This document shows positions 1,121 to 62,032 of a DNA stretch of 64,000 nucleotides, in pieces. Both the position numbers and the translations under genes were made by a program. The DNA is taken from positions 1,922,001 through 1,986,000 of the forward strand of contig UYFQ01000001.1 of assembly GCA_900617105.1 (NCBI GenBank), read 5' to 3'. This DNA is from Hydrurus foetidus (lineage: Eukaryota). The notes under the pieces were generated by a model. It saw only the letters and a program-made list of their open reading frames with translations, had not been told where the DNA came from and did no database searches. The stretch's first letter is position 1, and each line of letters opens with the position of its first letter.

Positions 1121-1178
1121 GCTATTACTTTCATAGCTGCTCGCGCCCATATTTGTTGCGCTATTGGGCTAAAATGCA
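1121..1178 (+). repeat. 56-bp dispersed element, copy 1 (intergenic)
   Basis: gctattactttcatagctgctcgcgcccatatttgttgcgctattgggctaaaatg. Confidence 0.85.
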
Positions 1179-1219
1179 TATAAAAAAAGCAACTTTTGCG
1201 TAAATCACAGCGGCAAAGT

Positions 1220-1303
1220 AAGCGACTGGGCAAGCGACTGGGCAAGCGACTGGGCAAGCGACTGGGCAAGCGACAGGGTAAGTGACAAAGAAAGTGACAG
1301 AGG
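1220..1303 (+). repeat. 12-bp tandem repeat (AAGCGACTGGGC x4 plus 3 degenerate units)
   Basis: Perfect units at 1220, 1232, 1244, 1256; degenerate units at 1268, 1280, 1292. Confidence 0.95.
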
Positions 1304-1309
1304 AAATGT

Positions 1310-2620
1310 ATGCAACGTATCGTGATTATTGGCGGCGGGGCCGGCGGGTTGGCACTGGCTACCCAGCTAGGCAAGCGCCTGGGCAAGAAAAAAAAGGCCC
1401 AGATCACGCTGGTAGACGGTGCCCGCACGCACGTGTGGAAGCCGCTGTTTCACCAGTTGGCGGCGGGCAGCTTTGACACCCATGCCGAAGAAATTGAATA
1501 CCTGGCCCAAGCCCGCTGGAACCATTTTAAATTTCGCCTGGGCCGGCTGACCGGTGTTGACCGCGCCAATAAAACCGTGCAACTGGCCGCTAGCCACGAC
1601 GCCGCGCGCCGCGAAATCACGCCAGCGCAGTCGCTTGCTTACGACACCCTCATCATTGCTGTGGGCAGCCAGACCAACGATTTTGGCACGCTGGGTGCGG
1701 CAGAGCACACCATCAAACTCGACAGCCCCGCGGCAGCCAAGTACTTCAACGCCCGTCTGGTCAACGCGTGCCTGCGCGCACAAACCTTGCCCCGGGTGGA
1801 AGGCAAAGCCATGTTGACCGTCACCATCGTTGGCGGCGGCGCTACCGGGGTTGAGCTGGCGGCTGAGCTGCATTCGGCAGCCCGCATCATGGGCAACTAC
1901 GGCTTCGACAATATCGACCCTGAAAAAGACCTGCAAATTGTGCTGGTGGAAGCCGGGCCGCGCCTGCTGGCCCAGTTGCCCGAGCGCCTCGGCCACGCCG
2001 CTGAAAAAGAGCTGCGCAAGCTGGCCATTGACGTGCATGTCAATGAAAAAGTAGTGTCGGTCACTGAAAACGGCCTGACCATGGCCAGCGGCAAGCAAAT
2101 ACCCACCACGCTCACGGTATGGGCAGCCGGCGTGAAAGCCGCCGACTTTTTGGCAACCCTTGGCGGCACAGACCCGCTAGAGGTCAACAGGCTCAACCAG
2201 CTGATGGTCAATGGCAATTTGCAAACCACCCGCGACCCGAGCATTTATGCCTTTGGTGACTGCGCGGCCTGCCCGCAACCCGATGGCACCTGGGTGCCCC
2301 CGCGCGCGCAGTCGGCTTACCAGCAAGCGATGTATCTGGCGCGCCACCTGCCCGACCTGATGGCAGGCACGCCAGTCAAGCCCTACCTGTACACCGACCA
2401 GGGCTCGCTGGTGTCACTGGCAGAGTATTCGTCGGTCGGCAGCCTGATGGGGTCTTTGAGCAAAGGCAGCTTTTTTGTGGAAGGGCAAATCGCCAAACTC
2501 ATGTACTGGGCGCTGCACAAGCAGCACCAACTGGCGCTGGGCGGGGTGAAGAAAACGGCGTTGATTACGCTGTCTGAGCTGCTAGACCGCACGCACCGCC
2601 CGCGCATCAAACTGCATTGA
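1310..2620 (+). CDS. ndh: Type II NADH dehydrogenase
   Basis: GGGAGG and GGGATGVELAAE Rossmann motifs, VPPRAQSAYQQA, C-terminal RPRIKLH. Confidence 0.9.
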   Translation: MQRIVIIGGGAGGLALATQLGKRLGKKKKAQITLVDGARTHVWKPLFHQLAAGSFDTHAEEIEYLAQARWNHFKFRLGRLTGVDRANKTVQLAASHDAARREITPAQSLAYDTLIIAVGSQTNDFGTLGAAEHTIKLDSPAAAKYFNARLVNACLRAQTLPRVEGKAMLTVTIVGGGATGVELAAELHSAARIMGNYGFDNIDPEKDLQIVLVEAGPRLLAQLPERLGHAAEKELRKLAIDVHVNEKVVSVTENGLTMASGKQIPTTLTVWAAGVKAADFLATLGGTDPLEVNRLNQLMVNGNLQTTRDPSIYAFGDCAACPQPDGTWVPPRAQSAYQQAMYLARHLPDLMAGTPVKPYLYTDQGSLVSLAEYSSVGSLMGSLSKGSFFVEGQIAKLMYWALHKQHQLALGGVKKTALITLSELLDRTHRPRIKLH

Positions 2621-9564: not shown

Positions 9565-9620
9565 GCTATTAATTCAGGAGCTGCTTGCGCCCGTATTTAT
9601 TGGACTAGATGCACTTTCTA
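9565..9620 (+). repeat. 56-bp dispersed element, copy 2 (intergenic, left flank of TA islet)
   Basis: gctattaattcaggagctgcttgcgcccgtatttattggactagatgcacttt. Confidence 0.88.
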
Positions 9621-9633
9621 TACTATAAAACGA

Positions 9634-11219: not shown

Positions 11220-11275
11220 ACTATTAATTCAGGAGCTACTTACGCCCGAATCCAATGGGCTACAAGCACCTTTAA
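11220..11275 (+). repeat. 56-bp dispersed element, copy 3 (intergenic, right flank of TA islet)
   Basis: actattaattcaggagctacttacgcccgaatccaatgggctacaagcaccttt. Confidence 0.85.
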
Positions 11276-11312
11276 CATCTAAAAATGGCTTTTTTAGCAA
11301 TTTTTGATGCTT

Positions 11313-13990: not shown

Positions 13991-16900
13991 ATGTCACTTA
14001 TGCCGAATTTGCCCATCCATCCACAGCGCCTGCCCACGCCCTATCGAACTGAAGCAGAAGTTGTCAACGCCCATTTGCAGTCGTTAGGCAATGCGCTGAA
14101 TTGGGCGCAAGCTGCCGAAACTGCCAAGCCTTGGGTGGCCGCAGTGCGCGCCAACCCGCCACCGTTTTGGGCGATGGAAAGTTTGCTCAAGGAATACCCA
14201 ATATCCAGCGCTGAAGGCCTGGCTCTGATGCGACTGGCCGAGGCGCTGCTGCGCGTGCCCGACATGGACACTGCCATTGCTTTAACGGCCGACCAATTGG
14301 GCCGCGCTGACTTTGCAGGCAGCGATGAAAAAGCCGTGAAGGTGCTGGCGCGTTTGTCGTCTAGCGCGATTGGCTTGTCGAAGAAGTTTTTGCCTTCTTC
14401 TGATGGCGGTGGTGGCGGCAACTTCGGTGCTGGCGGCGCCTGGAGCAAACTAGGCGCCCGCACCGTAGTGGCCGCCACGCTGCGCGCCGTGCAACTGCTG
14501 GGCAAGCAATTTGTATTGGGCCAAACCATAGCCGACGCAATGGATGAAGCAGCAAGCGCCAAGAAAAAACAAAGCGGCCTGCGCTACAGCTATGACATGT
14601 TGGGTGAAGGCGCGCGCACCGAGCGGGACGCGAAGGCCTATTTGGCCAGCTACACCAACGCTATTACTTCAATAGCTGCTCGCGCCCGTATTGATTACGC
14701 TTGCGAGCTAAATGATGGTATTTCTATCAAATTAAGTGCTCTGCACCCGCGTTTTGAGCACACCCAGCACGCACGGGTGATGGCAGAGCTGGTGCCGCGC
14801 GTGTGGGGACTGTGTGAGCTGGCCGCACGCGCCAACATCAACCTGACGATTGACGCTGAAGAAGTTGACCGGCTTGAGTTGTCGTTAGACGTATTTGAGG
14901 CACTGGCCGCGCTGGTGTCCCTGCACTACCCCGAGTGGCGCGGCTTTGGCCTGGCGCTGCAGGCGTACCAAACCCGAGCGCTGGACCTGGTGCAACACGT
15001 GATTGTGCTGGCCCGCAAACACAAACTGCGCCTGATGTGTCGGCTGGTTAAAGGCGCGTACTGGGACTCTGAAATCAAACGCGCCCAAGAGCTCGGCCTG
15101 CCGCATTACCCTGTCTTCACCCACAAAAACCACACCGATGTGGCCTACCTGGCCTGCGCCAAAGCGCTGCTGGATGCGCCCGATGCCATTTACCCGCAGT
15201 TTGCTGGGCACAACGCGGGCACGATTGCGGCCATCATGAAAATGGCCGCGGCCAACAACGCTCCATTTGAATTGCAGCGCCTGCACGGCATGGGCGAAGG
15301 CGTCTTCCGTGAGGTGCTTAAGAACCCGCACCTGGCATGCCGCATTTACGCGCCGGTGGGCTCACATAAAGACTTGCTGGCGTACCTGGTGCGGCGCCTG
15401 CTTGAAAACGGGGCCAATTCATCTTTCGTTCACCAGCTGGCAGATGAGTCCGTGGGCATGGATGAGCTGCTCACTTCGCCCTTGACGTCGCACCCCGCGC
15501 CGTCATTACCCCTGCCCGCTGACCTGTTTGGACTGAGTCGTCAAAACAGCGCTGGCGTTGACTTGGCGGTTGAAGCGATGCTGGTGCCGCTGCGCATCGC
15601 ATGCGCAGCTACTGAAGTGCCCAGAGTAGCTATTTTCGATACACATTTGGCCTCTAGCTTAATAAATACGGGCGCAAGCAGCTATCAAAAATGGAGTGCC
15701 CAACCCGTGCAGGCGCGCGCAGCTATTTTGCGCAAAGCCGCTGACGCCATGCAACTGGCGCTGCCTATGTTCTGCGCGCTGTTGGTCAAAGAGGCGCACA
15801 AAACACTGGGCGATGCCGTGGCCGAGGTGCGCGAAGCGATTGACTTTTTACGTTATTACGCGGGCGAAGCAGAGCGCATCATGACACCTATAAATTTGCC
15901 ACAGGCGCACGGCGGCGAAGCGTTTGGCATCACGGGAGAAACCAACGTGCTGCAGCTTAAAGCGCGGGGCGTGTGGCTGTGTATCAGCCCGTGGAACTTT
16001 CCCCTGGCTATTTTTGTCGGCCAGGTAGCTGCAGCGCTCAGCACGGGCAATGCGGTGATTGCCAAGCCAGCCGAGCAAACGCCCGGCGTGGCGCAAGCCG
16101 CCGTTAAATTGCTGACTGACGCAGGCGTGCCCAGCGGCGCGCTGCAACTGGCGCACGGTGCGGGCGACACGGTGGGGGCCGCCCTGGTGGCTCAACCCGG
16201 GCTGGCCGGCGTGGTGTTCACGGGCTCCACCCAGGTCGCCAAAATCATCAACCGCGCACTGGCTGCCAAAGACGGCCCCATCACCCCGCTGATTGCCGAG
16301 ACTGGCGGTATCAACGCCATGCTGGTCGACAGCAGCGCCCTGCCTGAACAGGTGGTCGACGCCGTGATGCACAGCGCCTTTAAAAGCGCCGGCCAGCGCT
16401 GCTCGGCGTTGCGGCTTTTGTGTGTGCACGAATCTATCGCCGACCGCGTGATTGAAATGGTGCAAGGCGCAGCGCTTGAACTGGCCACTGGCGATGCAGC
16501 TGACCTGCAAACTGACGTGGGGCCGGTAATTGATGCTGAGGCCTTTGAAGCCATTCAAACACAGGTAAAACGCTTAAATTCGGAGTCAAAAGTGCTCTTT
16601 AGCCAGGAAATGCGGGCGCGAGCAGCTCCTATAAGCGTAGCAAACTGCATCGCTAATTTAGTACCACCAACCGCGTTTGAAGTTAGCAGTATTGCCGCCG
16701 TGCGCGAAGAAATTTTTGGGCCAGTGCTGCAAATAGTGCGCTGGCGCGGTGACCCGCACAACGTGATGACGCAAATCAACGCGCTGGGCTACGGGCTGAC
16801 GCTGGGCATCCAGACCCGCATTGATTCACGTGCCGAAGCACTGGCAGCCAGCGCGCATATCGGCAACGTGTACGTCAATCGCGCCATGACCGGCGCTGTA

Positions 16901-19441: not shown

Positions 19442-20599
19442 ATGCCAAAAATTTTGTATTTCTTTTCCCTGTGCAATCTCGTCATTGGCAGCGGCGCATT
19501 TATTTTGGGCGGTATCTTGCAGCCGGTCAGCACCGGGTTGGGTATCAGCGTGGCGGCGGCCGGTCAAGCCATGACTGTCTACGCATTGGCAACCGCTGTA
19601 CTTGCGCCGCTGCTGATTGTGGTGACCGCCGATTGGCCGCGCAAACGCGCCGTTCAATTGGCGTTGGGCCTGTTTGCGGCGGGCAATCTGGTGTCGGCAT
19701 TGGCACCGAGTTTGACAGTTTTGTTGATGGGCCGCGCGCTGATGGGCGCAGGTGCCATGTTTACGGCTGCGGTGTCAGCGCTAGCGGTCACGCTGGTGGC
19801 CCCTAGGCTGGTCGGGCGGGCGCTGTCCACCACCTTTTTAGGCATGAGCATCAGCTACGCAGTGGCGCTGCCGATTGGCGCCTGGCTGGGTTTTGAATTC
19901 GGCTGGCGCGTGCCTGTGTGGCTGTGCGTGGCGGCAAGTGCGCTAGCGCTACTGGCCGCAACGGTGCTGCTGCCCAAAGGCGCGGCAACTGCACGCATTA
20001 ACTTCAGTGGTTTCAAAGCGGCTGCAAGCCAAAGCGCGGTGTTGCGCGTGTGGCTGCGCACGCTGCTGTTTTTTGTCGCTATCTTCAGTGTGTTTACTTA
20101 TGTTGGGCCGGTGTTGTTGGCGTTAAATGCAATGAACTCTGTGGTGCTTTCAGTGGTGCTGGCTTTTTTTGGCGTGGCCGGTGTGGTGGGTACGCTGCTG
20201 GGCGGCTGGGCCAACGACCGATTTGGTTCATTGAGAACCATCACCGTTCAGCTTATCGTGCTGGTCAGCATGATGTGCGTACTGCCATTGACAGCCGGTA
20301 GCCTGGCTGCGACGGTTTGCACGCTGGTGGTGTGGGGCGTGGCCGGTTTTGGATTAACCGCGCCACAGCAAAGCCGACTGGTCAGCCTGTCGCCTAAAGA
20401 CGCGCCACTGCTGCTCAGTTTGAACAGCTCCATGCTGTACGGCGGCACAGCGCTGGGCGCGGTGGTCAGCGGCGCCATGATCAACACCGTGGGTCTGGCA
20501 AATCTGGGCTGGGTGGGCGCGCCGTTTGCGCTGGCGGCACTGGCCACGCTGGCGTTTGACCGTGCGCCGACTGCTAAGGCTTTGCCGAAAACCAGTTAG
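19442..20599 (+). CDS. MFS transporter (DHA1-like)
   Basis: About 12 hydrophobic segments; GQAMTVYAL, GGWANDRFG. Confidence 0.85.
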   Translation: MPKILYFFSLCNLVIGSGAFILGGILQPVSTGLGISVAAAGQAMTVYALATAVLAPLLIVVTADWPRKRAVQLALGLFAAGNLVSALAPSLTVLLMGRALMGAGAMFTAAVSALAVTLVAPRLVGRALSTTFLGMSISYAVALPIGAWLGFEFGWRVPVWLCVAASALALLAATVLLPKGAATARINFSGFKAAASQSAVLRVWLRTLLFFVAIFSVFTYVGPVLLALNAMNSVVLSVVLAFFGVAGVVGTLLGGWANDRFGSLRTITVQLIVLVSMMCVLPLTAGSLAATVCTLVVWGVAGFGLTAPQQSRLVSLSPKDAPLLLSLNSSMLYGGTALGAVVSGAMINTVGLANLGWVGAPFALAALATLAFDRAPTAKALPKTS

Positions 20600-21078
20600 A
20601 CATGGCGCTTGCCTGACCCAGCGCGAGTACCTTTTGGCAGCCAATCAGCCCGCTCATGCAGCGCTTCAATGATGTGGCAAGTGGTGTCCAGCCCATCACA
20701 GCGCCCCCGCAGTGCTTTCAAATCTTTTTCAAGGGCCTTCAGCTCAGCCAGTCTGGCGCGCACATGGCCCAAATGCGCATCTAGCGAGCCACGCGCTGTA
20801 GCGCAATCGGCTTTGTCGTTCAGGTTCAGGCCTAGCAGCGTGCGCACTTCGCTAAGGGACATATCCAGGGCCCTGCACGCACGTATAAAACGCAATTGGT
20901 GAACGTCCCCATCGCTATACATTCGGTAGCTGTTGTCGCCCCGCAGCGTTGGCCTGAGGAGCTTTTCTTTCTCATAAAAGCGAATGTTAGCGGGCGTGAC
21001 GCCGCTTAGCGTTGCCGCCTGGCTGATACGGTAATTGAGCGCCGCTGACGACTCAATGCTGGTGGCGGTGGTGGGCAT
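20596..21078 (-). CDS. cadR: Cd(II)/Pb(II)-responsive MerR-family regulator (start uncertain)
   Basis: IRFYEKEKLL..NSYRMY..FIRACRALDMSLSEVR; Cys ligands ADC..RGRC..TCHII. Confidence 0.82.
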   Translation of the reverse strand: MPTTATSIESSAALNYRISQAATLSGVTPANIRFYEKEKLLRPTLRGDNSYRMYSDGDVHQLRFIRACRALDMSLSEVRTLLGLNLNDKADCATARGSLDAHLGHVRARLAELKALEKDLKALRGRCDGLDTTCHIIEALHERADWLPKGTRAGSGKRHV

Positions 21079-22120
21079 CGGGGAAATGCGCATGGCTGTG
21101 CTCCAGCGGGTCGTGTTGATGCGCGTGTGAATGGCTGCCGTTGGCAGGCACACCGTCCACGTCAAGGTGCGCGTGTTGGTGGTGCTCGTCATGCGTATGA
21201 AGATGCGTATGCGCTAGAGCCGTATGCTGATGCAAGTGGCCGTGGTCTTCTGTCAAATGCAGCCACACGCCCACCCCCATCAATGCGCTGGCCAGCCCCA
21301 ATTGCCCTGTGATCGGCTCTGCAAAAAACACAACCGAAATTGCAGCCCCCACAAAAGGCGCTACTGAAAAGTACGCCCCCGAACGTGATGCACCTAAATA
21401 CCGCAGCGCCACGACAAACAGCGCCAGGCTAACGCCGTAAGCCAAAAAGCCAACCAGCATGGCAGCGCTAATTGCCGCTAGCGACGGCCACGCCGCGCCC
21501 AGCACAAAAGCCAGCAGCAAATTGGTTGTGCCTGCCGCCAGGCCTTTAACGCAGGCAATCCACGACGCATCAGCATGCGCTACCTTGCGCGTAAAGTTGT
21601 TGTCCAGTGCCCAGAAAGCGCAGGCCAGCAGCACCGCCAGCGCGGGCCAAAATTGCGCGGCCTGCAGGTCTGCATTCACGGCACCCTGCGGCCAGCTAAG
21701 CAAAAATGCGCCCGCCACAATCAGCGCCATGCCCAGCACAATGCGGCGGCCCAAGTGCTCTTTAAAAAGCGTCCAAGCCAAAAACGTAGTAAGCACCGCT
21801 TCGGCATTGAGCAGCAGCGATGCATAGCTGGCCGCCATGCCTGACAAGCCAAACATCAACAACACAGGCGCCGCCCCGCCGCCGCAAACCACGGCCGCGA
21901 CCAGCCAAAGTGCTTCATTGCGATTCAGGCGCGGCGTTGGCAGCCCTTTTATCAGCCGATACACCAACAGCCCCAGGCCCGAGCCCGCGTACAACAAACC
22001 AGCCAGCAGCCACGGGCTAACCTGACCCAACGAGCCACCCAGCAGCGCTTTGGCCAATGGCGTGCCCGCGCCGAATAAAAAAGCCGACGCCAATGCGGCC
22101 CACACGCCGATGTTTCCCAT
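21053..22120 (-). CDS. EamA/DMT transporter with His-rich C-terminus
   Basis: About 10 TM; WALDNNFTRK; tail HTHLHTHDEHHQHAH..HFPDAHHRHQH. Confidence 0.87.
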   Translation of the reverse strand: MGNIGVWAALASAFLFGAGTPLAKALLGGSLGQVSPWLLAGLLYAGSGLGLLVYRLIKGLPTPRLNRNEALWLVAAVVCGGGAAPVLLMFGLSGMAASYASLLLNAEAVLTTFLAWTLFKEHLGRRIVLGMALIVAGAFLLSWPQGAVNADLQAAQFWPALAVLLACAFWALDNNFTRKVAHADASWIACVKGLAAGTTNLLLAFVLGAAWPSLAAISAAMLVGFLAYGVSLALFVVALRYLGASRSGAYFSVAPFVGAAISVVFFAEPITGQLGLASALMGVGVWLHLTEDHGHLHQHTALAHTHLHTHDEHHQHAHLDVDGVPANGSHSHAHQHDPLEHSHAHFPDAHHRHQH

Positions 22121-22155
22121 ATCCTTAGCGTTTAACCGTGTTATTTTCAAAGTTC

Positions 22156-22186
22156 TTGACCTTCAAGTGGCTTTAGAGTTTCCAAT
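22156..22186 (+). promoter_or_regulatory. MerR-type promoter with 19-bp spacer upstream of CDF gene
   Basis: TTGACC-[TTCAAGTGGCTTTAGAGTT]-TCCAAT with imperfect dyad in the spacer. Confidence 0.75.
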
Positions 22187-22220
22187 CATGCCATTGAAGC
22201 AAAAATCAGGAACCAAACCC

Positions 22221-22850
22221 ATGTCAGCCCACTGCGGACACTCACACGCCGACGACAGCAAAAACGCCAACAGCCCCCGCCACCGCAATATTTTGTGGAT
22301 TGCGCTGGTGGTCAACTTGGCCATGTTTGCCGTTGAAATTGGCGCAGGCTTCAGGTCAGGCTCAACCTCGCTGTTGGCCGATGCGATTGATTTTTTTGGT
22401 GATGCGGCCAACTACGGCGTGTCGCTGGCCGTACTGTCGGCAGGTGTCGTTTTGCGCGCGCGCGCGGCACTCATCAAAGGCGCTTGCATGATCGGTTTCG
22501 GCATATTTGTGTTGGGTCGCGCAGCGTGGATGTTTAACCAAGGCGGCACGCCCGAAGCACTCACCATGGGCAGCATTGGCCTGCTGGCGTTGATAGCCAA
22601 CGTAGCAGTAGCGGCCATGCTGTATGCGTACCGTGAAGGCGATGCCAACATGCGTAGCGTATGGCTGTGCTCACGCAACGACGCGATAGGCAACATTGCT
22701 GTGATGCTGGCGGCGCTTGGCGTGCTGGGCACAGCCAGCGCTTGGCCCGACTTGCTGGTGGCCAGCGGCATGGCTGTACTGGCACTTAGCGGTGGCTGGT
22801 CGGTCGTTAGGCAGGCCGTTGGCGAAATCAAACAAACACAAACCAGCTAA
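22221..22850 (+). CDS. Cation diffusion facilitator (Co/Zn/Cd) lacking C-terminal domain
   Basis: SLLADAIDFFGDAANY, NMRSVWLCSRNDAIGN, WPDL. Confidence 0.88.
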   Translation: MSAHCGHSHADDSKNANSPRHRNILWIALVVNLAMFAVEIGAGFRSGSTSLLADAIDFFGDAANYGVSLAVLSAGVVLRARAALIKGACMIGFGIFVLGRAAWMFNQGGTPEALTMGSIGLLALIANVAVAAMLYAYREGDANMRSVWLCSRNDAIGNIAVMLAALGVLGTASAWPDLLVASGMAVLALSGGWSVVRQAVGEIKQTQTS

Positions 22851-22866
22851 TCAACAAAAGCGCAAC

Positions 22867-23652
22867 ATGACAATTGCAACTTATCCACTGTCTGGCCTGC
22901 ACTGCGGCGCTTGCGTTAAAAAAGTAAGCCAAGCGTTAGCGCCATTGGCAACTAGCGTTGCCGTTAGCCTGCAGCCGATGCAAGTAGTGTTGACGGATGC
23001 AACGGTTGGCTTTGATGCGTTGAAATCTGCCGTAGAGAGCGCTGGAAAGTACGTCCTGTTGCCTAATTCAGTGCCAAATAATGCATTAAATATGCCTGTA
23101 GCCCAATCAATACGGGCGCAAGCAGCTCCTGAAATAATAGCGAATTCAGAGCTCACACCAAGCTGGCTGGCCACCTATTACCCGCTGCTTTTAATAGTGG
23201 GGTACATCTTTGGTGGGAGTTTGCTGGTGCAAATTGGCGTGGGCGGCCTGGCTAGCATCAACACCATGGACACCATGCGCTACTTCATGGCCGGTTTCTT
23301 TTTGGTCTTTTCGTTTTTCAAGCTGCTGGACATCAACGCCTTTGCTGACGCCTATGCAGGTTATGACTTGCTGGCAAAGCGCTGGCGCGGCTGGGGTTTG
23401 GTTTACCCGTTTGTTGATCTGGCACTTGGCGCGGCCTATCTGGCCAACTTCAATCCAGCGCTGACCCACTGGGCGACCATTATCGTGATGGGGTTTTCAG
23501 CCATTGGCGTAATCAAGGCAGTGCTGAGCAAAACCCAAATTCAGTGCGCCTGCTTGGGCACAGTCTTCAAGCTGCCAATGAGCACGGTGACGATTGTTGA
23601 AGATGTGGGTATGGTGGCGATGGCGGCTGCGATGTTGGTTTTTACAGTTTGA
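22867..23652 (+). CDS. HMA domain + MauE/DoxX-like membrane protein
   Basis: GLHCGAC; FMAGFFLVFSFFKLL; IQCACLGTVFKLPMSTVTIVED. Confidence 0.85.
   Translation: MTIATYPLSGLHCGACVKKVSQALAPLATSVAVSLQPMQVVLTDATVGFDALKSAVESAGKYVLLPNSVPNNALNMPVAQSIRAQAAPEIIANSELTPSWLATYYPLLLIVGYIFGGSLLVQIGVGGLASINTMDTMRYFMAGFFLVFSFFKLLDINAFADAYAGYDLLAKRWRGWGLVYPFVDLALGAAYLANFNPALTHWATIIVMGFSAIGVIKAVLSKTQIQCACLGTVFKLPMSTVTIVEDVGMVAMAAAMLVFTV
23086..23141 (-). repeat. 56-bp element copy 7, antisense in HMA-MauE linker (NMPVAQSIRAQAAPEIIA)
   Basis: Reverse complement gctattatttcaggagctgcttgcgcccgtattgattgggctacaggcatattt. Confidence 0.9.
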
Positions 23653-23655
23653 CTA

Positions 23656-23683
23656 TTGAACTTTTACACGCCTGCCCTATCAT
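23656..23683 (+). promoter_or_regulatory. Candidate leaderless promoter TTGAAC-N16-TATCAT-N6-ATG
   Basis: Identical architecture at 31693-31720 before the paralogous ORF. Confidence 0.65.
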
Positions 23684-23689
23684 TAACCC

Positions 23690-24115
23690 ATGCGCCATTT
23701 TGTCCTCGCCCTCATGATTGCCCTGCTGCCGTTGCGCGGCTGGGCGGGGGACGCGATGGCTACGCAAATGGCCAGCAATGCAATTGCTATGGAATCAGGA
23801 GCTGCTCGCGCCCATGAAATGGTCGCTGGAGCCACTTTTTACTCCCAAAAAGAGCATGTGGAGGCTTCGCACGCGGTTCCTGATTGCCATGAGCTTCCTG
23901 CAGCTCAGCCTACCGGTCAAGGCGAGGCAGAAACCGTTGCAGCCAGCGACCATTGCGGCACTTGCCAAGCCTGCCAGGCTTGCCATACAGTGGCGTTGTC
24001 ACCTTCTGCCTTTGCAGTAACGGCGTCTTTCACGCCACCCCAGCTGCGGCCAATGCGCACCGCAGCATTTACCAGCGCAGCCGCAGCGCTGGGTCAAAAA
24101 CCACCGATTTCCTAG
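23690..24115 (+). CDS. Cys-rich exported leader protein (DUF2946/CutF/CzcI-like), paralog 1
   Basis: ALMIALLPLRGWAG signal; HCGTCQACQACH; ends GQKPPIS. Confidence 0.75.
   Translation: MRHFVLALMIALLPLRGWAGDAMATQMASNAIAMESGAARAHEMVAGATFYSQKEHVEASHAVPDCHELPAAQPTGQGEAETVAASDHCGTCQACQACHTVALSPSAFAVTASFTPPQLRPMRTAAFTSAAAALGQKPPIS
23786..23841 (+). repeat. 56-bp element copy 8, in-frame in leader paralog 1 (AMESGAARAHEMVAGATF)
   Basis: gctatggaatcaggagctgctcgcgcccatgaaatggtcgctggagccactttt. Confidence 0.8.
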
Positions 24116-25984: not shown

Positions 25985-26006
25985 ATTCATTTGATAAAGA
26001 TTCACC

Positions 26007-27449: not shown

Positions 27450-27478
27450 ATTTTTAATCCTTATACAAAGATCACATC

Positions 27479-37581: not shown

Positions 37582-39152
37582 TTTGAAACTCCAGTTTTGT
37601 CAATAGCGGTGGCGGTAGATAGCCTGGCGGGCCAGATGCGAAAGGTGGCCCGAGTGAACCACTCATCCAGATACAGCCCGGCATAAAACCAGGGGTACAA
37701 ACGGCTGGCTACAGCGCCGTGCGGCCGCGCGCGTATCAGGCACTGCATGGCGAACAGCAGCGCAAAACACAGCATGACCCACACCAGGTCAAAGCGGTTG
37801 GCCATGTTTTTTGGAGCATCGATCAACCAGCCAAACGCATGGTGCAGGCCAAAGTAGGCGAGTGCAATGCCCAATGCACCCAGTACTAAGCCCAGTGGCC
37901 ATAAACCGCCCAGCCGCAAAGCCTGCGCTGTGAGCAGCGGCGATAAAGCCAGCGACAGCACGGCGGCCAGCACCCACAGTGCTGAAAATTTATCAAAAGC
38001 CACGCCCCACAGCAGCCCCGCGGCTGCCACGATCACCAGGCCACTGACCGCGCCAACGACCATCGCGCTGACCGTGAGCGGATTCGATGGCGCAGGTGTC
38101 ATGGCCATTAACCGCGCCTGCTCGACTGCACCGCCAGCTGCCAAAAAGGCATGCGCTTTGTACAGTGAATGGGCCACCAGGTGCAGCAGCGCCAGCTCGT
38201 AAGCCCCCAGGCCGCATTGCATCAACATGAAGCCCATTTGCGCGCAGGTTGACCAGGCCAGCATCACCTTCACGCTGATGCGCGTCATCATCACCAGCGC
38301 AGCGACTGCAGCGGTGACACTGCCAACAATGACCAGCAGCGTTTGCGCACCCGCTACATCGGCTACCAGCGGGCTCAGGCGAATCAGCAAAAAGCCGCCC
38401 AGATTCACAATGCCGGCGTGCAGCAGGGCAGACACCGGCGTTGGCGCTTCCATCACCTGTATCAGCCAGCCGTGTACCGGCAGTTGCGCGCATTTAAGCA
38501 GCGCGCTGATGACAATTAAAAATACTGCTGCCTGAATCGCCCGCGGATACGCCGTTAACGCCTGTGCCCTGGCAATGACCTGGTCAATCTGCAGGCTACC
38601 CAGTGTCATCGCTATCAATGCGATGCCCGCAAACAGGCACACATCGCCCAGCCTGCTGGCCAAAAACTTTTTGTGCGCCGCGATCATGGCCGCTGGCCTG
38701 TGACTGAAAAAGGTCAGCAACTGGTGCAGGCACAAAGAGGTGGCCAGCCAGGCCAGGCCTAGCACGGCCAGATGGTTGGTCACTATCACCACCACCACAG
38801 CAGCCAGCGTGGCCATCAGCCAGCGGGTATACCGGGCCTGGCCACTGACTCCACATGTCTGGCCAGCCATGTAGGTTTGGGAATAGCGCGTGATGACCCA
38901 GCCAATAAAAGTGACCAGCAGCAACACCGTGCAGCCCAGCGCATCAGCGCGTACTCCGTTGATGATGAGCGGCCCGCCTACTGACGGTAAAACCAGCAAA
39001 GCCAGCGAAGCAGCCGCCAAGCCCAAAGCCAGTGCACTGCAGGCTAGTGCGACACGCCAGCTGGCAGTCACAGCTGCCAACGCATACAACAGCGGTATGG
39101 CCAGCAACAGCGCGGCCCTGAGCGGCTGCAAGTCGTCAAATGAAAGTAACAA
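37578..39152 (-). CDS. dabB: Inorganic carbon pump membrane subunit DabB (NuoL/ND5-like)
   Basis: AHKKF..SRLGD, KCAQLPVHGWL..MEAPTPVSALLHAG, HSLYKAHAFL; 4-bp overlap with dabA; AAGGAG before TTG. Confidence 0.9.
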   Translation of the reverse strand: MLLSFDDLQPLRAALLLAIPLLYALAAVTASWRVALACSALALGLAAASLALLVLPSVGGPLIINGVRADALGCTVLLLVTFIGWVITRYSQTYMAGQTCGVSGQARYTRWLMATLAAVVVVIVTNHLAVLGLAWLATSLCLHQLLTFFSHRPAAMIAAHKKFLASRLGDVCLFAGIALIAMTLGSLQIDQVIARAQALTAYPRAIQAAVFLIVISALLKCAQLPVHGWLIQVMEAPTPVSALLHAGIVNLGGFLLIRLSPLVADVAGAQTLLVIVGSVTAAVAALVMMTRISVKVMLAWSTCAQMGFMLMQCGLGAYELALLHLVAHSLYKAHAFLAAGGAVEQARLMAMTPAPSNPLTVSAMVVGAVSGLVIVAAAGLLWGVAFDKFSALWVLAAVLSLALSPLLTAQALRLGGLWPLGLVLGALGIALAYFGLHHAFGWLIDAPKNMANRFDLVWVMLCFALLFAMQCLIRARPHGAVASRLYPWFYAGLYLDEWFTRATFRIWPARLSTATAIDKTGVSK

Positions 39153-39212
39153 AATTCGCTCCTTCGGTGTTCGATGCCCTGACTATGCCAATTCAATTTA
39201 ATTCTGTAAAAT

Positions 39213-39233
39213 ACATATTTAAGTTAAATATGT
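39213..39233. promoter_or_regulatory. Perfect palindrome ACATATTTAA-G-TTAAATATGT between dabB and LysR
   Basis: 10-1-10 inverted repeat in the AT-rich divergent intergenic region. Confidence 0.6.
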
Positions 39234-39272
39234 TCTATTAAATAGATCAACAAAACAGATCAATCCACCCCC

Positions 39273-40172
39273 ATGTCGCGTTTGAACTATCACCACCTGC
39301 ATTACTTCTGGGCAGTCGCCAAAGAAGGCAACCTGACCCGCGCCGCAGCGCAGTTGCACGTGTCGCAATCAGCGCTGTCCACGCAGATCAAGCAGCTTGA
39401 AGACCAGCTGGGTCAGGCACTGTTCACACGCATTGGTCGTGTGATGGAATTGACTGAGGCAGGGCGTATGGCATTGACCTATGCCGACACCATTTTTGAA
39501 ACCGGCAATGAACTGACCGCGTTGCTGCGTGACGGCAAGCGCCTGGCGCGCCAGGTGCTGCGCATTGGCGGCGTGGCCACGCTGTCGCGTAATTTTCAGG
39601 AGAACTTCGTCAAACCGTTGCTCAAGCGTGACGACGTTGAATTGGTGCTGCAGTCCGGCGGACTGGACGAGCTGCTCACCCGGCTGGCCGTCCACAACCT
39701 GGACGTGGTGCTCAGCAACCGCAAAGTCCATGCCGATAGCCAGCACCCCTGGCGCTGCCGGCGTATTGCACGGCAGCCGGTCAGCCTGGTGGGTAAACCG
39801 CGCACCAAAGCGAAGGCGTTCAGATTTCCAGATGAACTGGCCGAGCAACCTTTGCTGTTACCTGGCCGCGACAGCGACATTCGTGCTGGGTTTGACGTGC
39901 TGTGCGAGCAACTCGGCCTGCGTTACCAGGTGCTGGCCGAAGTGGATGACATGGCCATGCTGCGGCTGCTGGCGCGGGACTCTGGCAATGTCGCGCTGCT
40001 GCCCTCCGTGGTGGTGCAAGACGAATTAAAAAGCGGCAAGCTGCAGGAGTATTGCGTGGTGCCGCAGCTGCATGAAAACTTCTATGCGATCACGGTGCAG
40101 CGGCATTTTGAGCCGCCGCTGCTGAAGACGTTGCTTAGAAGGTCTGAGGCTGAGGTTTTGGGCTCGCTTTGA
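39273..40172 (+). CDS. LysR-family regulator (NhaR-like), divergent from dabBA
   Basis: LNYHHLHYFW..EGNLTRAA..SQSALSTQIKQLE; AEVDDMAML. Confidence 0.92.
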   Translation: MSRLNYHHLHYFWAVAKEGNLTRAAAQLHVSQSALSTQIKQLEDQLGQALFTRIGRVMELTEAGRMALTYADTIFETGNELTALLRDGKRLARQVLRIGGVATLSRNFQENFVKPLLKRDDVELVLQSGGLDELLTRLAVHNLDVVLSNRKVHADSQHPWRCRRIARQPVSLVGKPRTKAKAFRFPDELAEQPLLLPGRDSDIRAGFDVLCEQLGLRYQVLAEVDDMAMLRLLARDSGNVALLPSVVVQDELKSGKLQEYCVVPQLHENFYAITVQRHFEPPLLKTLLRRSEAEVLGSL

Positions 40173-44918: not shown

Positions 44919-44932
44919 GTGCTTTTTCGAAG

Positions 44933-44988
44933 CGAAATAAGCTTTTTAATCAATGAATACGGTTGCAAGCAGCTACTAAATAAATAGC
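44933..44988 (-). repeat. 56-bp element copy 12 (intergenic)
   Basis: Reverse complement gctatttatttagtagctgcttgcaaccgtattcattgattaaaaagcttattt. Confidence 0.8.
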
Positions 44989-45819: not shown

Positions 45820-45864
45820 CCGTTCAAATGCCGAAGAATACCCATTTTTAGGTGTTTTTGAGGA

Positions 45865-45920
45865 TATGTTACCCTCCTAGCCCAATAAATACGGGCATAA
45901 GCAGCTATTGAATAAATAGC
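45865..45920 (-). repeat. 56-bp element copy 13 (intergenic)
   Basis: Reverse complement gctatttattcaatagctgcttatgcccgtatttattgggctaggaggg. Confidence 0.85.
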
Positions 45921-50730: not shown

Positions 50731-50786
50731 ACTATTTAATTTATAGCTGCTCGCGCCCGTATTTATTGGTTAAAAGGCAAAAATGA
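50731..50786 (+). repeat. 56-bp element copy 14; tail contains the SDR start codon
   Basis: actatttaatttatagctgctcgcgcccgtatttattggttaaaaggcaaaaATG. Confidence 0.88.
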
Positions 50787-51562
50787 CACTCAATTTAGCC
50801 ATAAATTTCGGTTTGCAAGGCCGTGTGTGCATAGTCACGGGTGGCGCGCAAGGCATTGGCCAAGCTTGCGCGCGGCGGTTTGCGCGCGAAGGCGCACACG
50901 TCGTTATTGTCGATGTCGACAACGCCAAAGGACAAGCGCTGGCAGACGAGCTCAAAGCCAGCTATTTTGAATGTGATGTGGGCAGCAGTGCAGCTGTTCA
51001 GGCCATGGTCAAGCACGCTACTGCCTTGCATGGCCGCATTGATGTGTTGGTCAACAACGCGGGGATTTTTAAAGCGGCTGATTTTTTGGATGTGACTGAA
51101 GCCGACTTTGACGCCGTACTGCGCGTTAACCTCAAAGGGGCGTTTTTAGCCGGGCAAGCGGTGGCGCGTGAAATGACCAAAACTGGCGGCGGGGCCATCG
51201 TCAATATGAGCTCGGTTAATGGCGTGCTGGCTATTCCCAGCATTGCCAGCTACAACGTCAGCAAAGGCGGCATCAACCAGCTAACGCGCGTTATGGCGCT
51301 GGCGCTGGCGCTGGCCGACGCTGGCGTTCGCGTCAATGCCGTCGCCCCCGGCACCATCGCCACCGAGCTGGCGGCGCGTGCCGTACTGACCAGCGAAGAA
51401 GCCCGGCAAAAAATAATGAGCCGCACGCCACTTAAACGCTTGGGTACCCCGGAGGAAGTTGCCGATGTAGTGGCCTTTTTGGCCAGCGACGCTGCCAGCT
51501 ACATGACAGGTGAGATCGTGGTGGTCGATGGTGGCCGTATGGCGCTGAACTACACCGTTTGA
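50783..51562 (+). CDS. SDR oxidoreductase
   Basis: TGGAQGIG, VNNAG, YNVSK, VNAVAPG, VDGG. Confidence 0.9.
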   Translation: MTLNLAINFGLQGRVCIVTGGAQGIGQACARRFAREGAHVVIVDVDNAKGQALADELKASYFECDVGSSAAVQAMVKHATALHGRIDVLVNNAGIFKAADFLDVTEADFDAVLRVNLKGAFLAGQAVAREMTKTGGGAIVNMSSVNGVLAIPSIASYNVSKGGINQLTRVMALALALADAGVRVNAVAPGTIATELAARAVLTSEEARQKIMSRTPLKRLGTPEEVADVVAFLASDAASYMTGEIVVVDGGRMALNYTV

Positions 51563-57186: not shown

Positions 57187-58176
57187 TTAAACACACGGCG
57201 ACGAAAAGAACGCCTGCGCCTCAGGCGGCAGTACCCTGCCGGTGCGGTGCGCGCGCTCCAGCACCTGCCAAAAGTAGCGGTAGCTGGCGCGGTCATGCAA
57301 TTGGCCGTTAAAACTGATCGGAGCCCAATTAATACGGGCGCAAGCAGCTATTATTTTAGTAGCGACATCGATTTCTGCTTCAGTCGGGGCAAAGGCCTCC
57401 AGAATCGGCCGAATCTGGTTGGGGTGAATGCTCCACATGCGTGTGTAGCCGAACGATCGCGCAGCTTGCCGGGCCGCTGCCTTGACTGCATCGAGATCGT
57501 TAAACTCGGTCACCACGCAGTGCGAAGGCGTTTTGCCGTGCGCGTGGCAGCTGGACGCAATATCCAGCTTGGCGCGGGTCACCAACGGATGGGTGAACTG
57601 CCCGTGGCTGCTCATGGCCTCAGCCGGAATAGCGCCGCCGTGGCTGGAGACAAAATCCATCAGCCCAAAACTGATCGACTGCACGCGCGGGTGGGCCGCA
57701 ATTTCAAAGGCGCGGTGAATGGCTGCCGGGGATTCCAACAACACATGCAAGGGCAAATGCGCGCCCTTGGCGGCGTCCAGCGCTGCTTCAGCTGTCGTCA
57801 CGTCGGCTCTAGACTCCACTTTTGGCACCATGATGTGGCACAGCCTGTTGCCCGCTTGGCCAACAATCGCAGCAACATCTGCAGCAAACGCAGGATGGTC
57901 TATCGCGTGAACCCGTACTGCCACACGGGCACCTGCCGGGGCCGATTGCGCCATTGCCACGACCATGGCTGCGTGGTCGGCCTCGCCACCTATGGGCGCG
58001 CCGTCTTCGCAATCAAGCGTGACATCAAAAACACTCGCGCCAAACTCTTGAGTCATCTCGGCCTGCAATTGCAGGCTTTTGCGCATGCGCGACTCCACCC
58101 CGCTGTAGTGGTCGCACACTGGTAGAAAACCAGTGGCGGCCTGAGCTTTGATAAGAATGTCGCGCGGGTGGCTCAT
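57187..58176 (-). CDS. HpcH/HpaI aldolase / CitE-like lyase
   Basis: TLDCEDGA, FGLMDFVS, MWSIHP.QI, HDRASYRY. Confidence 0.88.
   Translation of the reverse strand: MSHPRDILIKAQAATGFLPVCDHYSGVESRMRKSLQLQAEMTQEFGASVFDVTLDCEDGAPIGGEADHAAMVVAMAQSAPAGARVAVRVHAIDHPAFAADVAAIVGQAGNRLCHIMVPKVESRADVTTAEAALDAAKGAHLPLHVLLESPAAIHRAFEIAAHPRVQSISFGLMDFVSSHGGAIPAEAMSSHGQFTHPLVTRAKLDIASSCHAHGKTPSHCVVTEFNDLDAVKAAARQAARSFGYTRMWSIHPNQIRPILEAFAPTEAEIDVATKIIAACARINWAPISFNGQLHDRASYRYFWQVLERAHRTGRVLPPEAQAFFSSPCV
57308..57363 (-). repeat. 56-bp element copy 15, in-frame in CitE-like gene (ATKIIAACARINWAPISF)
   Basis: Reverse complement gctactaaaataatagctgcttgcgcccgtattaattgggctccgatcagtttt. Confidence 0.88.
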
Positions 58177-59318: not shown

Positions 59319-60149
59319 ATGGCCGCACTTTTACCCCCCCTTTCAGCCGCCCCACACACGCCTGCACCGACTGCAGTTGCGGCTGGTGCAGCCGCGGCGT
59401 TCAATGAAGGGCCTGGCGCGTTAACGCCTGCCTTTAGCCCGCTTTACCAACAAATCAAAGCGCTGATTTTGCAAAGCCTGCAGTCAGGCGAATGGAAGCC
59501 TGGCGAAGCCATACCGTCTGAAATGGACCTGGCCACCCGCTACCGGGTGAGCCAGGGCACGGTGCGCAAAGCCATAGACGAGCTAGGCGCCAGCAACCTG
59601 GTGGTGCGCCGTCAAGGCAAGGGCACATTCGTGGCCACGCATGCCGCGCAGCAAGCGCAATTCAGATTTTTAAAACTGGTGCCCGACAGCGGCTTGCCAG
59701 GCAGTGAAGGCCCCGCCCAGCGCGAAATCATTGACTGCCGCCGCGCTAGAGCCAGTGCCGAGGTGGCCAAGGCCTTGAAGCTGCGCGCAGGCGACGCAGT
59801 GCTACAGGCGCGGCGCGTACTGAGCTTTGCCGGAACGCCCACTATTTTGGAAGACCTGTGGCTGCCTGCCGCGCCGTTCAAAGGCCTGACGGCTGAGCGC
59901 CTGGCCAGCTACGACGGCCCCATGTATGCACTGTTTGAAACCGAATTTAACATGCGCATGCTCCGTGCTGAAGAGAAAATACGTGCGGAATCAGCCATTG
60001 ACGGGCGCGACCAGCTATTAAAAGTAGAGCACGGCACGCCGCTTTTGGGTGTAGAACGCATCGCCTACACCTACCAGGACGTGCCCATGGAGCTGCGCCG
60101 CGGTTACTATCGCACCGACACGCACTATTACAGCAACACGCTTAACTGA
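59319..60149 (+). CDS. GntR/HutC-family regulator of TCA genes (SdhR-like)
   Basis: PLYQQIK..IPSE..VSQGTVRKA..QGKGTFV; UTRA-like C-terminus. Confidence 0.9.
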   Translation: MAALLPPLSAAPHTPAPTAVAAGAAAAFNEGPGALTPAFSPLYQQIKALILQSLQSGEWKPGEAIPSEMDLATRYRVSQGTVRKAIDELGASNLVVRRQGKGTFVATHAAQQAQFRFLKLVPDSGLPGSEGPAQREIIDCRRARASAEVAKALKLRAGDAVLQARRVLSFAGTPTILEDLWLPAAPFKGLTAERLASYDGPMYALFETEFNMRMLRAEEKIRAESAIDGRDQLLKVEHGTPLLGVERIAYTYQDVPMELRRGYYRTDTHYYSNTLN

Positions 60150-60162
60150 TCACACCACATCG

Positions 60163-60351
60163 ATGCCGCCCCAATCCGGTTTTAAAGGAAACAAAGCTGG
60201 TTTGCCTAGCAAGATTTGCGTTACCTGCGGCCGCGAAATGACCTGGCGCAAAAGCTGGGCTAAAAACTGGGCCAACGTGAAGTATTGCTCTGACGCTTGC
60301 CGCGCAAACAAATCTAAATCCCCCGCACCCGGCACGGCGGCAAAGCAATAA
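60163..60351 (+). CDS. DUF2256 protein
   Basis: LPSKICVTCGREMTWRKSW..NW..VKYCSDACR. Confidence 0.88.
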   Translation: MPPQSGFKGNKAGLPSKICVTCGREMTWRKSWAKNWANVKYCSDACRANKSKSPAPGTAAKQ

Positions 60352-60418
60352 CCCCCAACGTGGTGCGGCGCGTTGTTTGCAGCCGCAGACATGGCAGTCA
60401 CTTGGCATAATTTAGCGT

Positions 60419-62032
60419 ATGAAAAACATACCGTGCCGTCATTCGGTGTTGATATTGGGTGACCAGCTTGACGAGGCCTCTTCTGCGTTTGACGGCTTTG
60501 ACCCCCAACTCGACGCCATCGTGATGATTGAGGCTTTTGAAGAGTCCACCCACGTCTGGTCTCACAAAATTCGAACCACGCTTTTCTTATCTAGCATGCG
60601 GCATTTTGCTGAAGGCCTCAGAAATCGCGGCTGGCGGGTTCATTACCGCGCACTAGACACCCACGCCGACAAAACGTTGGCAGCGGGCCTGCAAGCGGCC
60701 ATTGAAATACACCAGCCGCAAGCGGTAATTGGCGTGGAGCCGGGCGATCAACGGGTCAAGGTACAGCTTGAAGATGCTATTAAATCAATAGCTGCTCGCG
60801 CCCATAAAACGGGCGCCAAAGCACTAAAAGACCCTCAAAAATCGTCGAATTTGCACATTGACTGGCGCGAAGACAAGCACTTTTTATGCAGCCTGCCCCA
60901 GTTCAGAAAGTGGGCGGGCACATCTGCCAGCCTGCGCATGGAGTTTTTCTACCGCACCATGCGTAAACAGTACAAGGTGCTGGTTGAAGGCAAAGCCAGC
61001 GACGAGCCGGTTGGCGGCCAATGGAATTTTGACGCCGACAACCGCAAAAGCTTTGGCAAAGCCGGGCCACAAAATGTGCCCACCGCAATTCAATACAAGC
61101 CAGACACGATCACCAAAGACGTCATCAAACTGGTCAATACCCATTTTGCTGGCCACCCCGGTCAGCTGGATGACTTCAACTGGCCAGTTACCCGCAAACA
61201 GGCGTTAGCGGCTTTAAAAGACTTCATCGACAACCGCCTGCCGCAGTTTGGCCCGCATGAAGACGCGATGTGGACCAACCTTGACTTTGGCTGGCATTCT
61301 CTGCTGTCAAGCTCGCTCAATTTAAAGCTGCTTAACCCACTAGAAGTGGTGCTAGCCGCTGAAGCCGCTTACAAAAAACATGACCTCGATTTAGCCAGCG
61401 TCGAAGGCTTTATTCGGCAAATTTTGGGCTGGCGCGAGTTCATGCGCGGTGTGTACTTCATCGATATGCCTGAGCTGAAGACCGCCAACCACTACGGCCA
61501 CACCAACGCCCTGCCCAAGTGGTACTGGACAGGCGACACGCACATGAACTGCATGAAGCAGGCCATTGGCCAAACGCTTAAAAACGGTTACTCGCACCAC
61601 ATTCAGCGACTGATGATTACCGGCATGTTTGGCGTCACGGCGCAAATCAGCCCGCAAGCCATGTGCGATTGGTACCTAGCGGTATATGTTGACGCAGTGG
61701 AATGGGTTGAGCTGCCCAACGTGGCTGGTATGGCGCTGTTTGCCAACGGCGGGCGGTTTACTTCCAAGCCGTATGTTGCCAGCGGCGCTTACGTCAAACG
61801 CATGAGCAACTACTGCAGCGGCTGCAAATACGAACCCGAAACACGCGTGGGCGCTGCCGCCTGCCCGCTGACCACGCTGTATTGGAACTTTTTAGACAAG
61901 CACGAAGCAACGTTTGGCAGCAACCCACGCACGGCGCTGATGGTCAAAAACCTCCAGCGCATGACGCCTGAGCTGCGCGCGCAAGTCCGGGAGCGGGCAG
62001 GCGAGATGCTTGGCGATTTGGACAGCCTGTAG
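60419..62032 (+). CDS. FeS-cluster bacterial cryptochrome/(6-4) photolyase family protein
   Basis: LILGDQL, H..K..FLSSMRHFA, RMEFFYR, GGQWNFD..NR, HHIQRLM, Cys in MNCM / YCSGC / ACP. Confidence 0.92.
   Translation: MKNIPCRHSVLILGDQLDEASSAFDGFDPQLDAIVMIEAFEESTHVWSHKIRTTLFLSSMRHFAEGLRNRGWRVHYRALDTHADKTLAAGLQAAIEIHQPQAVIGVEPGDQRVKVQLEDAIKSIAARAHKTGAKALKDPQKSSNLHIDWREDKHFLCSLPQFRKWAGTSASLRMEFFYRTMRKQYKVLVEGKASDEPVGGQWNFDADNRKSFGKAGPQNVPTAIQYKPDTITKDVIKLVNTHFAGHPGQLDDFNWPVTRKQALAALKDFIDNRLPQFGPHEDAMWTNLDFGWHSLLSSSLNLKLLNPLEVVLAAEAAYKKHDLDLASVEGFIRQILGWREFMRGVYFIDMPELKTANHYGHTNALPKWYWTGDTHMNCMKQAIGQTLKNGYSHHIQRLMITGMFGVTAQISPQAMCDWYLAVYVDAVEWVELPNVAGMALFANGGRFTSKPYVASGAYVKRMSNYCSGCKYEPETRVGAAACPLTTLYWNFLDKHEATFGSNPRTALMVKNLQRMTPELRAQVRERAGEMLGDLDSL
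60776..60831 (+). repeat. 56-bp element copy 16, in-frame in photolyase (AIKSIAARAHKTGAKALK)
   Basis: gctattaaatcaatagctgctcgcgcccataaaacgggcgccaaagcactaaaa. Confidence 0.85.

Follow-up and report, generated by a model that had tools for sequence, protein, structure and literature searches.

The window analysed here is a stretch of 64,000 nucleotides deposited under Hydrurus foetidus (GenBank assembly GCA_900617105.1, contig UYFQ01000001.1, positions 1,922,001 to 1,986,000 of the forward strand), and it carries, within its genes and in the gaps between them, copies of a DNA motif of about 65 bp that recurs across many genomes of the Comamonadaceae in lineage-specific forms, here called dialects. 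An earlier note on this DNA had listed 16 copies of a repeat of about 56 bp, and all 16 were recovered by profile where it had placed them, its minus-strand positions being the low end of each copy (e.g., 15642 = 15697-55). The repeat is real, but the length then given falls short, as the conserved block extends to about 65 bp and takes in another GGC, followed by T- and A-tracts. The copies found in the window, with G001 being the nearest whole genome to it and used as its stand-in, are the following:

1121-1185, plus strand: intergenic copy between a cytochrome c gene and an FAD oxidoreductase gene; 41.6 bits; same site in G001.
9565-9629, plus strand: intergenic copy after yaeQ; 48.3 bits; same site in G001.
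11220-11284, plus strand: intergenic copy after an AMP-binding enzyme gene; 40.3 bits.
14660-14724, plus strand: sense copy in putA, from amino acid (aa) 235; same length as a motif-poor orthologue; also present in G001, G417 and G510, each in its own dialect.
15633-15697, minus strand: antisense copy in putA, about aa 559-580; length-neutral.
16577-16641, minus strand: antisense copy in putA, about aa 874-895; 4-9 residues longer than orthologues.
20914-20978, plus strand: weak antisense copy in merR, over conserved residues; length-neutral; 13.6 bits (30-column profile) or 24.7 bits (pooled profile); stronger in G510 at the same site.
23077-23141, minus strand: antisense copy in the HMA-MauE linker; 46.5 bits; all aligned orthologues carry a copy too.
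23786-23850, plus strand: sense copy in the gene of a 141-aa leader protein; 2 residues shorter than in G536, in a poorly conserved stretch.
27491-27555, plus strand: copy in the cupredoxin gene, in an N-terminal signal-peptide-like stretch; length-neutral.
32883-32947, plus strand: copy in the HMA protein gene, in an N-terminal stretch; G417 and G510 have their own dialect at the same site.
33617-33681, plus strand: intergenic copy before an NMT1-like gene; 46.4 bits; the G417 orthologue has an upstream copy.
36662-36726, minus strand: weak sense proto-site in dabA; 20.4 bits (pooled profile), compared with 31.1 bits at the same gap-free position in G001.
44924-44988, minus strand: intergenic copy after a DEAD-box helicase gene; 42.5 bits; same site in G001.
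45856-45920, minus strand: intergenic copy between convergent genes; the sole window copy with both stems perfect.
50731-50795, plus strand: copy just before a short-chain dehydrogenase gene; 43.8 bits; also upstream of the G417 orthologue, eroded in G536.
57299-57363, minus strand: sense copy in a CitE-like gene, from aa 273; length-neutral, conserved residues retained.
59966-60030, minus strand: antisense copy in gntR (UTRA domain), absent from the earlier list; 32.1 bits; length-neutral.
60776-60840, plus strand: sense copy in a photolyase-related gene, from aa 120, forming an extra loop; 38 residues between anchors, compared with 19 in one homologue without a copy.

With a profile built on the first 30 columns, the listed copies score 31-48 bits, and the maximum in 30 order-5 Markov simulations of the window was 15.3 bits, with a single simulation reaching 15. 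The copy at 60030(-) is the seventeenth clear one, and the weak copies at 20914(+) and 36726(-) both fall below the cut of the 56-column profile. Of the 17 clear copies, 10 fall inside genes, all within open frames. The nine in-gene placements earlier described as free of frame breaks stand, in genes that Pfam identified except for that of the 141-aa leader protein, to which Pfam returned no match. Rfam, checked for an already described family, gave zero matches overlapping any window copy. A weak core match at 15724(-), 41 bp upstream of the putA copy at 15697(-), is possibly a second proto-site.

The anatomy of the motif was derived from profiles of six sequence sets, namely the window and the genomes G001, G417, G510, G319 and G378, with 19-127 copies each. 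The motif is about 65 bp long with fixed spacing and carries 57-69 bits, the values of the small sets being inflated by sample size. Positions 1-17 form a dyad, GCTAY-N7-RKAGC, with an A/T-rich spacer, which is common to all six sets, and positions 19-45 are lineage-specific, to the extent that leave-one-out scoring of them traced 346 of 363 copies correctly to the genome they come from. In G319 and G378 these latter positions form a second inverted repeat, both arms of which are altered between the two genomes; it is weaker in G001 and G417, and mostly lost in G510. Further along come a GC word and then T- and A-tracts, each at a constant offset, and the four bases preceding the core are variable among the window copies.

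The repeat had first been described as a double hairpin, a form that turns out to be atypical of the copies and without support as the functional one. Among 16 window copies, the first stem is perfect in 4, the second in 4, and both in only 1. When compared with shuffles, 2 of the 16 fold with z < -2 as RNA, and 3 of the 16 as DNA. The covariation check proposed earlier gave a negative answer: pair counts within each of five genomes show no compensatory arm changes, so the stems do not covary within genomes, and a hairpin function was rejected on these grounds. Since the arms do not compensate each other and few stems are perfect, the dyads would rather be putative duplex binding sites than folded hairpins, although a protein might also recognise the fold along with the sequence. 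The idea that the motif is an RNA hairpin, acting in termination or mRNA stability, draws on the mild orientation and gene-end bias of the intergenic copies. However, copies inside genes occur in both orientations (102 of 321 copies, 47 sense and 55 antisense, by a crude gene caller that undercounts, finding 6 of the 10 in-gene copies in the window), and this adds to the poor folding, the missing covariation and the empty Rfam search. This explanation is already largely refuted, and we consider it highly improbable.

The motif is confined to one family. In G001, a 25-base pattern allowing up to one mismatch found 448 matches, and its reversed control found 0. The dyad pattern gave at least 100 forward matches in 52 of 251 Comamonadaceae genomes and 30-99 in 19 more (71 in total, a tally counted by hand from a per-genome table), the highest count being 716 and no control exceeding 16. 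The motif occurs about once per 3-4 kb in many Comamonadaceae. Among 294 genomes from 59 other families of the same order (G204, G287 and G026 are part of this outgroup and were used in this count only), no genome exceeded 11 dyad matches per strand. Named records bearing the motif include Polaromonas, Rhodoferax, Ottowia, Simplicispira, Giesbergeria, Hylemonella, Xylophilus and Xenophilus, five of which hold 231-497 matches per strand. Close relatives may differ sharply, as seen in G417 and G536 (488 compared with 26) and in G516 and G388 (474 compared with 5). The first core pattern missed whole dialects, finding 32 matches in G417 where the dyad pattern finds 488 per strand. The opposite case is seen in G416 and G535 of genus g257, with 44 and 77 core matches but 10 and 7 forward dyad matches, a dialect with an altered left arm; a ComEA-like query found no match in either genome. 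Two contigs of a metagenome-assembled genome titled Candidatus Kapabacteria (L006 and L123) carry the motif as well. These are possibly Comamonadaceae contigs that were wrongly binned, which suggests a use of the motif for checking bins.

A total of 61 motif-bearing frames were aligned to their orthologues and reduced to 25 sites by dropping shadow-frame duplicates, merging orthologous sites, and dropping 4 sites with only motif-carrying comparators; the labels of genes outside the window are putative. The length is the same, within 1 residue, at 11 of these sites, longer by 3-25 residues at 9, shorter at 4, and mixed at 1. The putA site at aa 235, counted as same-length, is 10-11 residues longer in G510 alone. 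In the window, putA (two sites), the CitE-like gene, gntR, merR and the cupredoxin gene accommodate the motif without any added peptide. The gap-free copies (n=15) represent 10 distinct sites; 125 of their 270 residues are identical to those of the motif-lacking orthologue, compared with 51.6 when other copies of the same genome are pasted in, and at 11 of the 15 the pasting control never reached the observed retention. At residues shared with the orthologue, the synonymous codon that best fits the motif is used in 103 of 117 cases, compared with 31.6 expected and 36 in the orthologues, a test that is partly circular because the copies were chosen by score. At length-neutral sites, silent codons have thus shifted toward the motif while residues were kept and, as judged from these alignments, the gap-free in-gene copies are built in place on existing codons. 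The comEC gene also carries the motif, at two loop positions; of 30 genomes, 11 have the one and 12 the other, always in the dialect of the genome concerned, and comEC of 4 motif-free genomes has none (comEC loci L401-L430).

Conserved columns are also kept up at intergenic copies. All 15 window copies that align to G001, including the weak one in merR, occupy the same site there. In the 6 intergenic copies compared between the window and G001, differences affect 6 of 114 high-information positions and 31 of 105 low-information positions (p 1e-6). Where several genomes have a copy at one and the same site, 57 of 58 scores were higher for the dialect to which the copy belongs, in a comparison that was not leave-one-out and whose pairs are not independent, and only 1 of 9,443 copy pairs is at least 90% identical. 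Flanking synteny in the motif-poor G536 was found for 18 of 27 G417 copies, of which 8 have the same length within 5 bp but are eroded, 5 are missing, and 5 are between these states. A G417 intergenic copy considered as the orthologue of the window copy at 11220 was not confirmed as such. Because conserved columns are held, dialects are followed at shared sites and near-identical pairs are almost absent, the copies are, on this comparative pattern, neither young transposition products nor neutral relics, and some force would be acting on each of them now.

These observations bear directly on the first of the two readings offered earlier, a mobile repeat. Rickettsia palindromic elements (RPEs) encode peptides in frame inside unrelated proteins, and some copies of the present motif similarly form extra loops (in the photolyase and in two G510 genes). 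Contrary to RPEs, many in-gene copies add no residues and keep those of the host, and old copies are updated to the current dialect. A short non-autonomous element of the RPE or repetitive extragenic palindromic (REP) kind, which an enzyme would insert or copy onto look-alike targets while short-patch conversion updated its old copies, is the reading that suits the element-sized in-frame gains of +21, +25 and +19 residues best, and the partial gains of +3 to +17 also count for it. It would also agree with the 5 intergenic copies that are absent from G536 as gaps, with the mere 2 of 7 intergenic window sites common to G417, and with the second dyad having changed on both arms between G319 and G378. 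However, pasting cannot yield the residues retained at gap-free sites, there is no master sequence or young subfamily, no doublets or clusters are seen, compensatory change is missing from five genomes and the second dyad from G510, and every window copy alignable to G001 lies at the same site there.

A mobilising enzyme was sought among REP-associated tyrosine transposases (RAYTs). A Y1_Tnp gene is found in 61 of 80 genomes, both motif-rich and motif-free, which counts for a copying element; the motif-free half of this set, as of the pilin set below, was picked by means of the first core pattern and includes one or more motif-positive genomes (G352, 72 matches). The corresponding RAYT-like HUH gene, of about 240-250 aa, is single-copy and conserved across Comamonadaceae without flanking repeats (L265, L572-L574). 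In G001 it has no motif within 1.5 kb, it is intact in the motif-poor G536, and it is present in the motif-poor G388 and in motif-free genomes. Neither a presence tracking copy number nor flanking copies were therefore seen, and a role of the gene as mobiliser is not supported. From the earlier proposal of a REP- or RPE-like element there remain the extra residues at 9 of 25 sites, the photolyase loop and the 5 gaps in G536; the scarcity of near-identical copies, the missing clusters and a RAYT-like gene untied to the motif speak against it, and we regard such an element as quite unlikely to be the general explanation.

Similarly to REP/REPIN-RAYT systems, the present motif is short, dispersed, partly palindromic, often located after genes, and scarce on plasmids and phages; contrary to them, its copies are single, none are identical, about a third or more lie in genes, and no RAYT is flanked (PMC3733652, PMC6006769). 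It also lacks the GTAG or CGTC tag that precedes a conserved hairpin in REPs, and the hairpin is lost in G510. In the strain list of PMC3733652, the only Comamonadaceae entry noticed is a Polaromonas strain placed with the CGTC elements, a tag missing from the present consensus. Term searches for Comamonadaceae genera in the main texts of PMC3733652, PMC6006769 and PMC12306157 gave no match. The Betaproteobacterial repeat element (BRE) occurs in Polaromonas, Acidovorax, Rhodoferax and Delftia with some copies in genes, but it is about 90 bp long, with 69% GC, at most 29 copies, often in tandem, and is also found in Bordetella (PMC3110155), so its described properties set it apart. VeiPR1 of Verminephrobacter eiseniae is a palindromic repeat making up 2.3% of the genome and called unique to that species (PMC3975124, citing 2009 work by Pinel). 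As a high-copy palindromic repeat of a member of the Comamonadaceae it resembles the present motif, with which it is compared by description only, and it could be one of its dialects. The available parts of PMC2755013 and PMC12378983 held nothing relevant. In the published literature, with figures, theses, bioRxiv supplements and subscription papers outside reach, no description of the motif was found; it is family-wide and real, and apparently undescribed.

The placement of the copies along the genome is regular and largely without polarity. In 20 evenly spaced windows of G319, copies split 45 to 58 between replichore strands (p 0.24), which ruled out a replichore-polarised signal. Gaps shorter than 300 bp number 6, compared with 23.1 expected for 321 copies, so that no doublets or clusters are formed and the spacing is evener than random. 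Two of the 20 G319 windows are empty and, judged from their genes, look like a prophage and a region of insertion sequence or integrative and conjugative element type. In viral loci, 28 further copies were counted in 1.05 Mb (85 loci with one match, some overlapping), a density of 0.027/kb compared with 0.26-0.34/kb in four host sets. Three plasmids of 360, 257 and 31 kb hold 3, 0 and 0 dyad sites, a count made on the plasmids alone, and blastn of one copy against plasmids returned chance matches only.

A site for an intracellular lineage-specific DNA-binding protein or complex, serving chromosome organisation, topology, repair or replication and kept by site-wise selection, would account equally well for the in-place build-up, the upkeep, the dialects, the even spacing and the depletion from mobile DNA. 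A 5-7-5 dyad is the usual site shape of a dimeric helix-turn-helix protein, and in 4 of 5 genomes A-runs or T-runs are commoner in the spacers than expected, both of which count in its favour. So does the finding that two motif-free genomes, G537 (L375:6618-6665) and G418 (L376:6592-6639), have two 17-bp dyads in tandem, at a distance of 31 bp, next to the gene of a small regulator that is presumably HxlR/MarR-like. This pair is probably the operator of the adjacent regulator, so a dimeric helix-turn-helix protein could read the 17-bp dyad. However, the sites of regulators usually carry about the information needed to find them, whereas the motif carries about 57-69 bits per site and about 13 would suffice. 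Hundreds of sites alter enzyme residues or add loops, which would be costly if each adds little. Chi, KOPS, matS and parS show a strand or regional bias, in contrast to the motif, and no candidate protein was identified. Taken together, we hold an intracellular binder to be unlikely.

The second of the earlier readings, a genome-wide protein-binding or uptake-type site, fares better, being in agreement with the overlay without length change, the held intergenic columns and the following of dialects, while the RPE/REP-like element fits a minority of sites. In the papers considered, uptake sequences are described for two families, the Pasteurellaceae, with their uptake signal sequences (USS), and the Neisseriaceae, with their DNA uptake sequences (DUS) (PMC2817400, PMC3458573). 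The traits that the present motif shares with them in genomic behaviour are listed in PMC2817400. Like USS and DUS, it belongs to one family, numbers hundreds to about a thousand copies in both orientations, and is spaced more evenly than random; it is under-represented but common in genes, with preferred frames, and at 11 of 25 in-gene sites fits an origin by mutation in place and recombination; and it is scarce in acquired DNA, with a GC-rich core, A/T tracts at fixed offsets, and lineage variants (PMC2817400, PMC3458573). Genomic copies of uptake sequences carry more information than uptake strictly needs (PMC3458573), an excess with which the 60 bits of the motif, compared with about 13 needed, would be consistent. 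Within the Comamonadaceae, V. eiseniae undergoes a pilus-dependent transformation that is poorly competed by salmon-sperm DNA, and two Acidovorax species have been naturally transformed (PMC4212676); no uptake sequence is named in the portions of the results and discussion of that paper that were covered.

Because of this match in genomic traits and in information excess, and of the selective transformation reported for V. eiseniae, we favour the view that the 65-bp motif is a putative DNA uptake (self-recognition) sequence kept by biased transfer in natural transformation, a view whose chances of being right or wrong we put as evenly balanced; the step from genomic pattern to uptake is one that we infer. 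According to this proposal, a receptor would favour incoming duplex DNA carrying the motif, recognising it partly by shape, and homologous recombination would then fix each change that improves the match, as a molecular drive. The element-sized gains might be loops or spacers that this drive retains and that are trimmed back around the motif, or the outcome of occasional ectopic integration. The motif behaves like USS and DUS, yet we would not file it as a member of either, since it lacks their short non-palindromic core and its uptake is putative. Rather more tentatively, it might belong to a third class of uptake sequences, unrelated to the other two: a barcode of 65 bp in two parts, whose left arm is common to the family and whose right arm varies by lineage, so that every lineage of the Comamonadaceae would have a password of its own in DNA exchange.

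Several observations weigh against an uptake sequence. Starting with its form, USS and DUS have non-palindromic cores of 9-10 bp, whereas the motif is a 17-bp dyad with a 48-bp extension, about six times longer; a USS with its flanks spans about 30 bp, compared with about 65 bp and about 60 bits here; their density is 0.8-0.9 per kb, compared with about 0.14-0.34; and they do not spread by insertion, whereas the motif shows some element-sized length gains (PMC2817400). Such gains include two G510 genes with +21 and +25 residues, about one motif length, and the photolyase copy with +19, in a loop for which 119 homologues were compared: it measures 31-51 residues in 118 of them and 19 in the remaining one. 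The 5 G417 intergenic copies missing from G536 are gaps of 70-164 bp there, which may be gains in G417 or losses in G536; only 2 of the 7 intergenic window sites are common to G417. In 8 coding copies, conserved columns are not significantly better kept than the others (8 of 160 differences compared with 12 of 144). Co-directional gene gaps lean to one orientation (70 compared with 45, p 0.025), and convergent gaps outnumber divergent ones (38 compared with 16).

The remaining points against uptake concern its machinery. Both comEC and PilE-type pilin genes (PF16732) were found in 80 of 80 genomes and a ComEA-like gene in 70 of 80, a presence that in itself counts in favour of uptake, but all three occur in motif-free genomes too. 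Two of the motif-rich genomes, G446 and G307, have a broken comEC, and the ComEA-like query had no match in 3 motif-rich genomes. Pilin loci were covered in three motif-rich and two motif-poor genomes plus G001, and among the loci listed no pilin family is common to G417, G510 and G516 and missing from G536 and G388. In G446, comEC is split by about 20 kb (C1:3227819-3248429), and in G307 it lies in three pieces (C1:1836740-1837544); both genomes would be useful for asking whether the motif decays once competence is lost. Matches to TIGR00426 were rejected as ComEA, the best ones lying in frames of about 800 aa. The search through PF16732, comEC, TIGR00426, the ComEA-like query and the pilin loci yielded no receptor.

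Among the genes of the window itself, a metal-handling cluster extends over 20596-33221, comprising a MerR regulator, a cation efflux protein, the HMA-MauE protein, an outer-membrane efflux protein, a multicopper oxidase and the cupredoxin, together with CusF, a P-type ATPase, a DUF305 protein and the HMA protein. Further on, 35071-40172 encodes the DabA subunit of an inorganic-carbon transporter, its membrane partner and a LysR regulator. This region is about 72% identical to G001, compared with 85-99% for most of its neighbours, which suggests an allele replacement, as far as identity levels can tell.

Whatever the force behind it, the motif clearly illustrates how a signal at the DNA level rewrites protein sequence, and it accounts for recurring peptides and extra loops in Comamonadaceae proteins. 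The pairs of close relatives with and without it, G417/G536 and G516/G388, offer a natural experiment that could lead to the responsible protein. If the motif is indeed an uptake sequence, DNA self-recognition would have arisen again on a different plan, with a longer and dialect-forming signal, in a major family of freshwater, soil and wastewater bacteria, and the strength of that signal would suffice to remodel enzymes, signal peptides and loops, at some thousand sites. This would point to a new kind of DNA receptor with a long footprint. It would also explain the selective transformation of the earthworm symbiont V. eiseniae and make it directly testable, and a simple tag could raise the transformation of Comamonadaceae strains.

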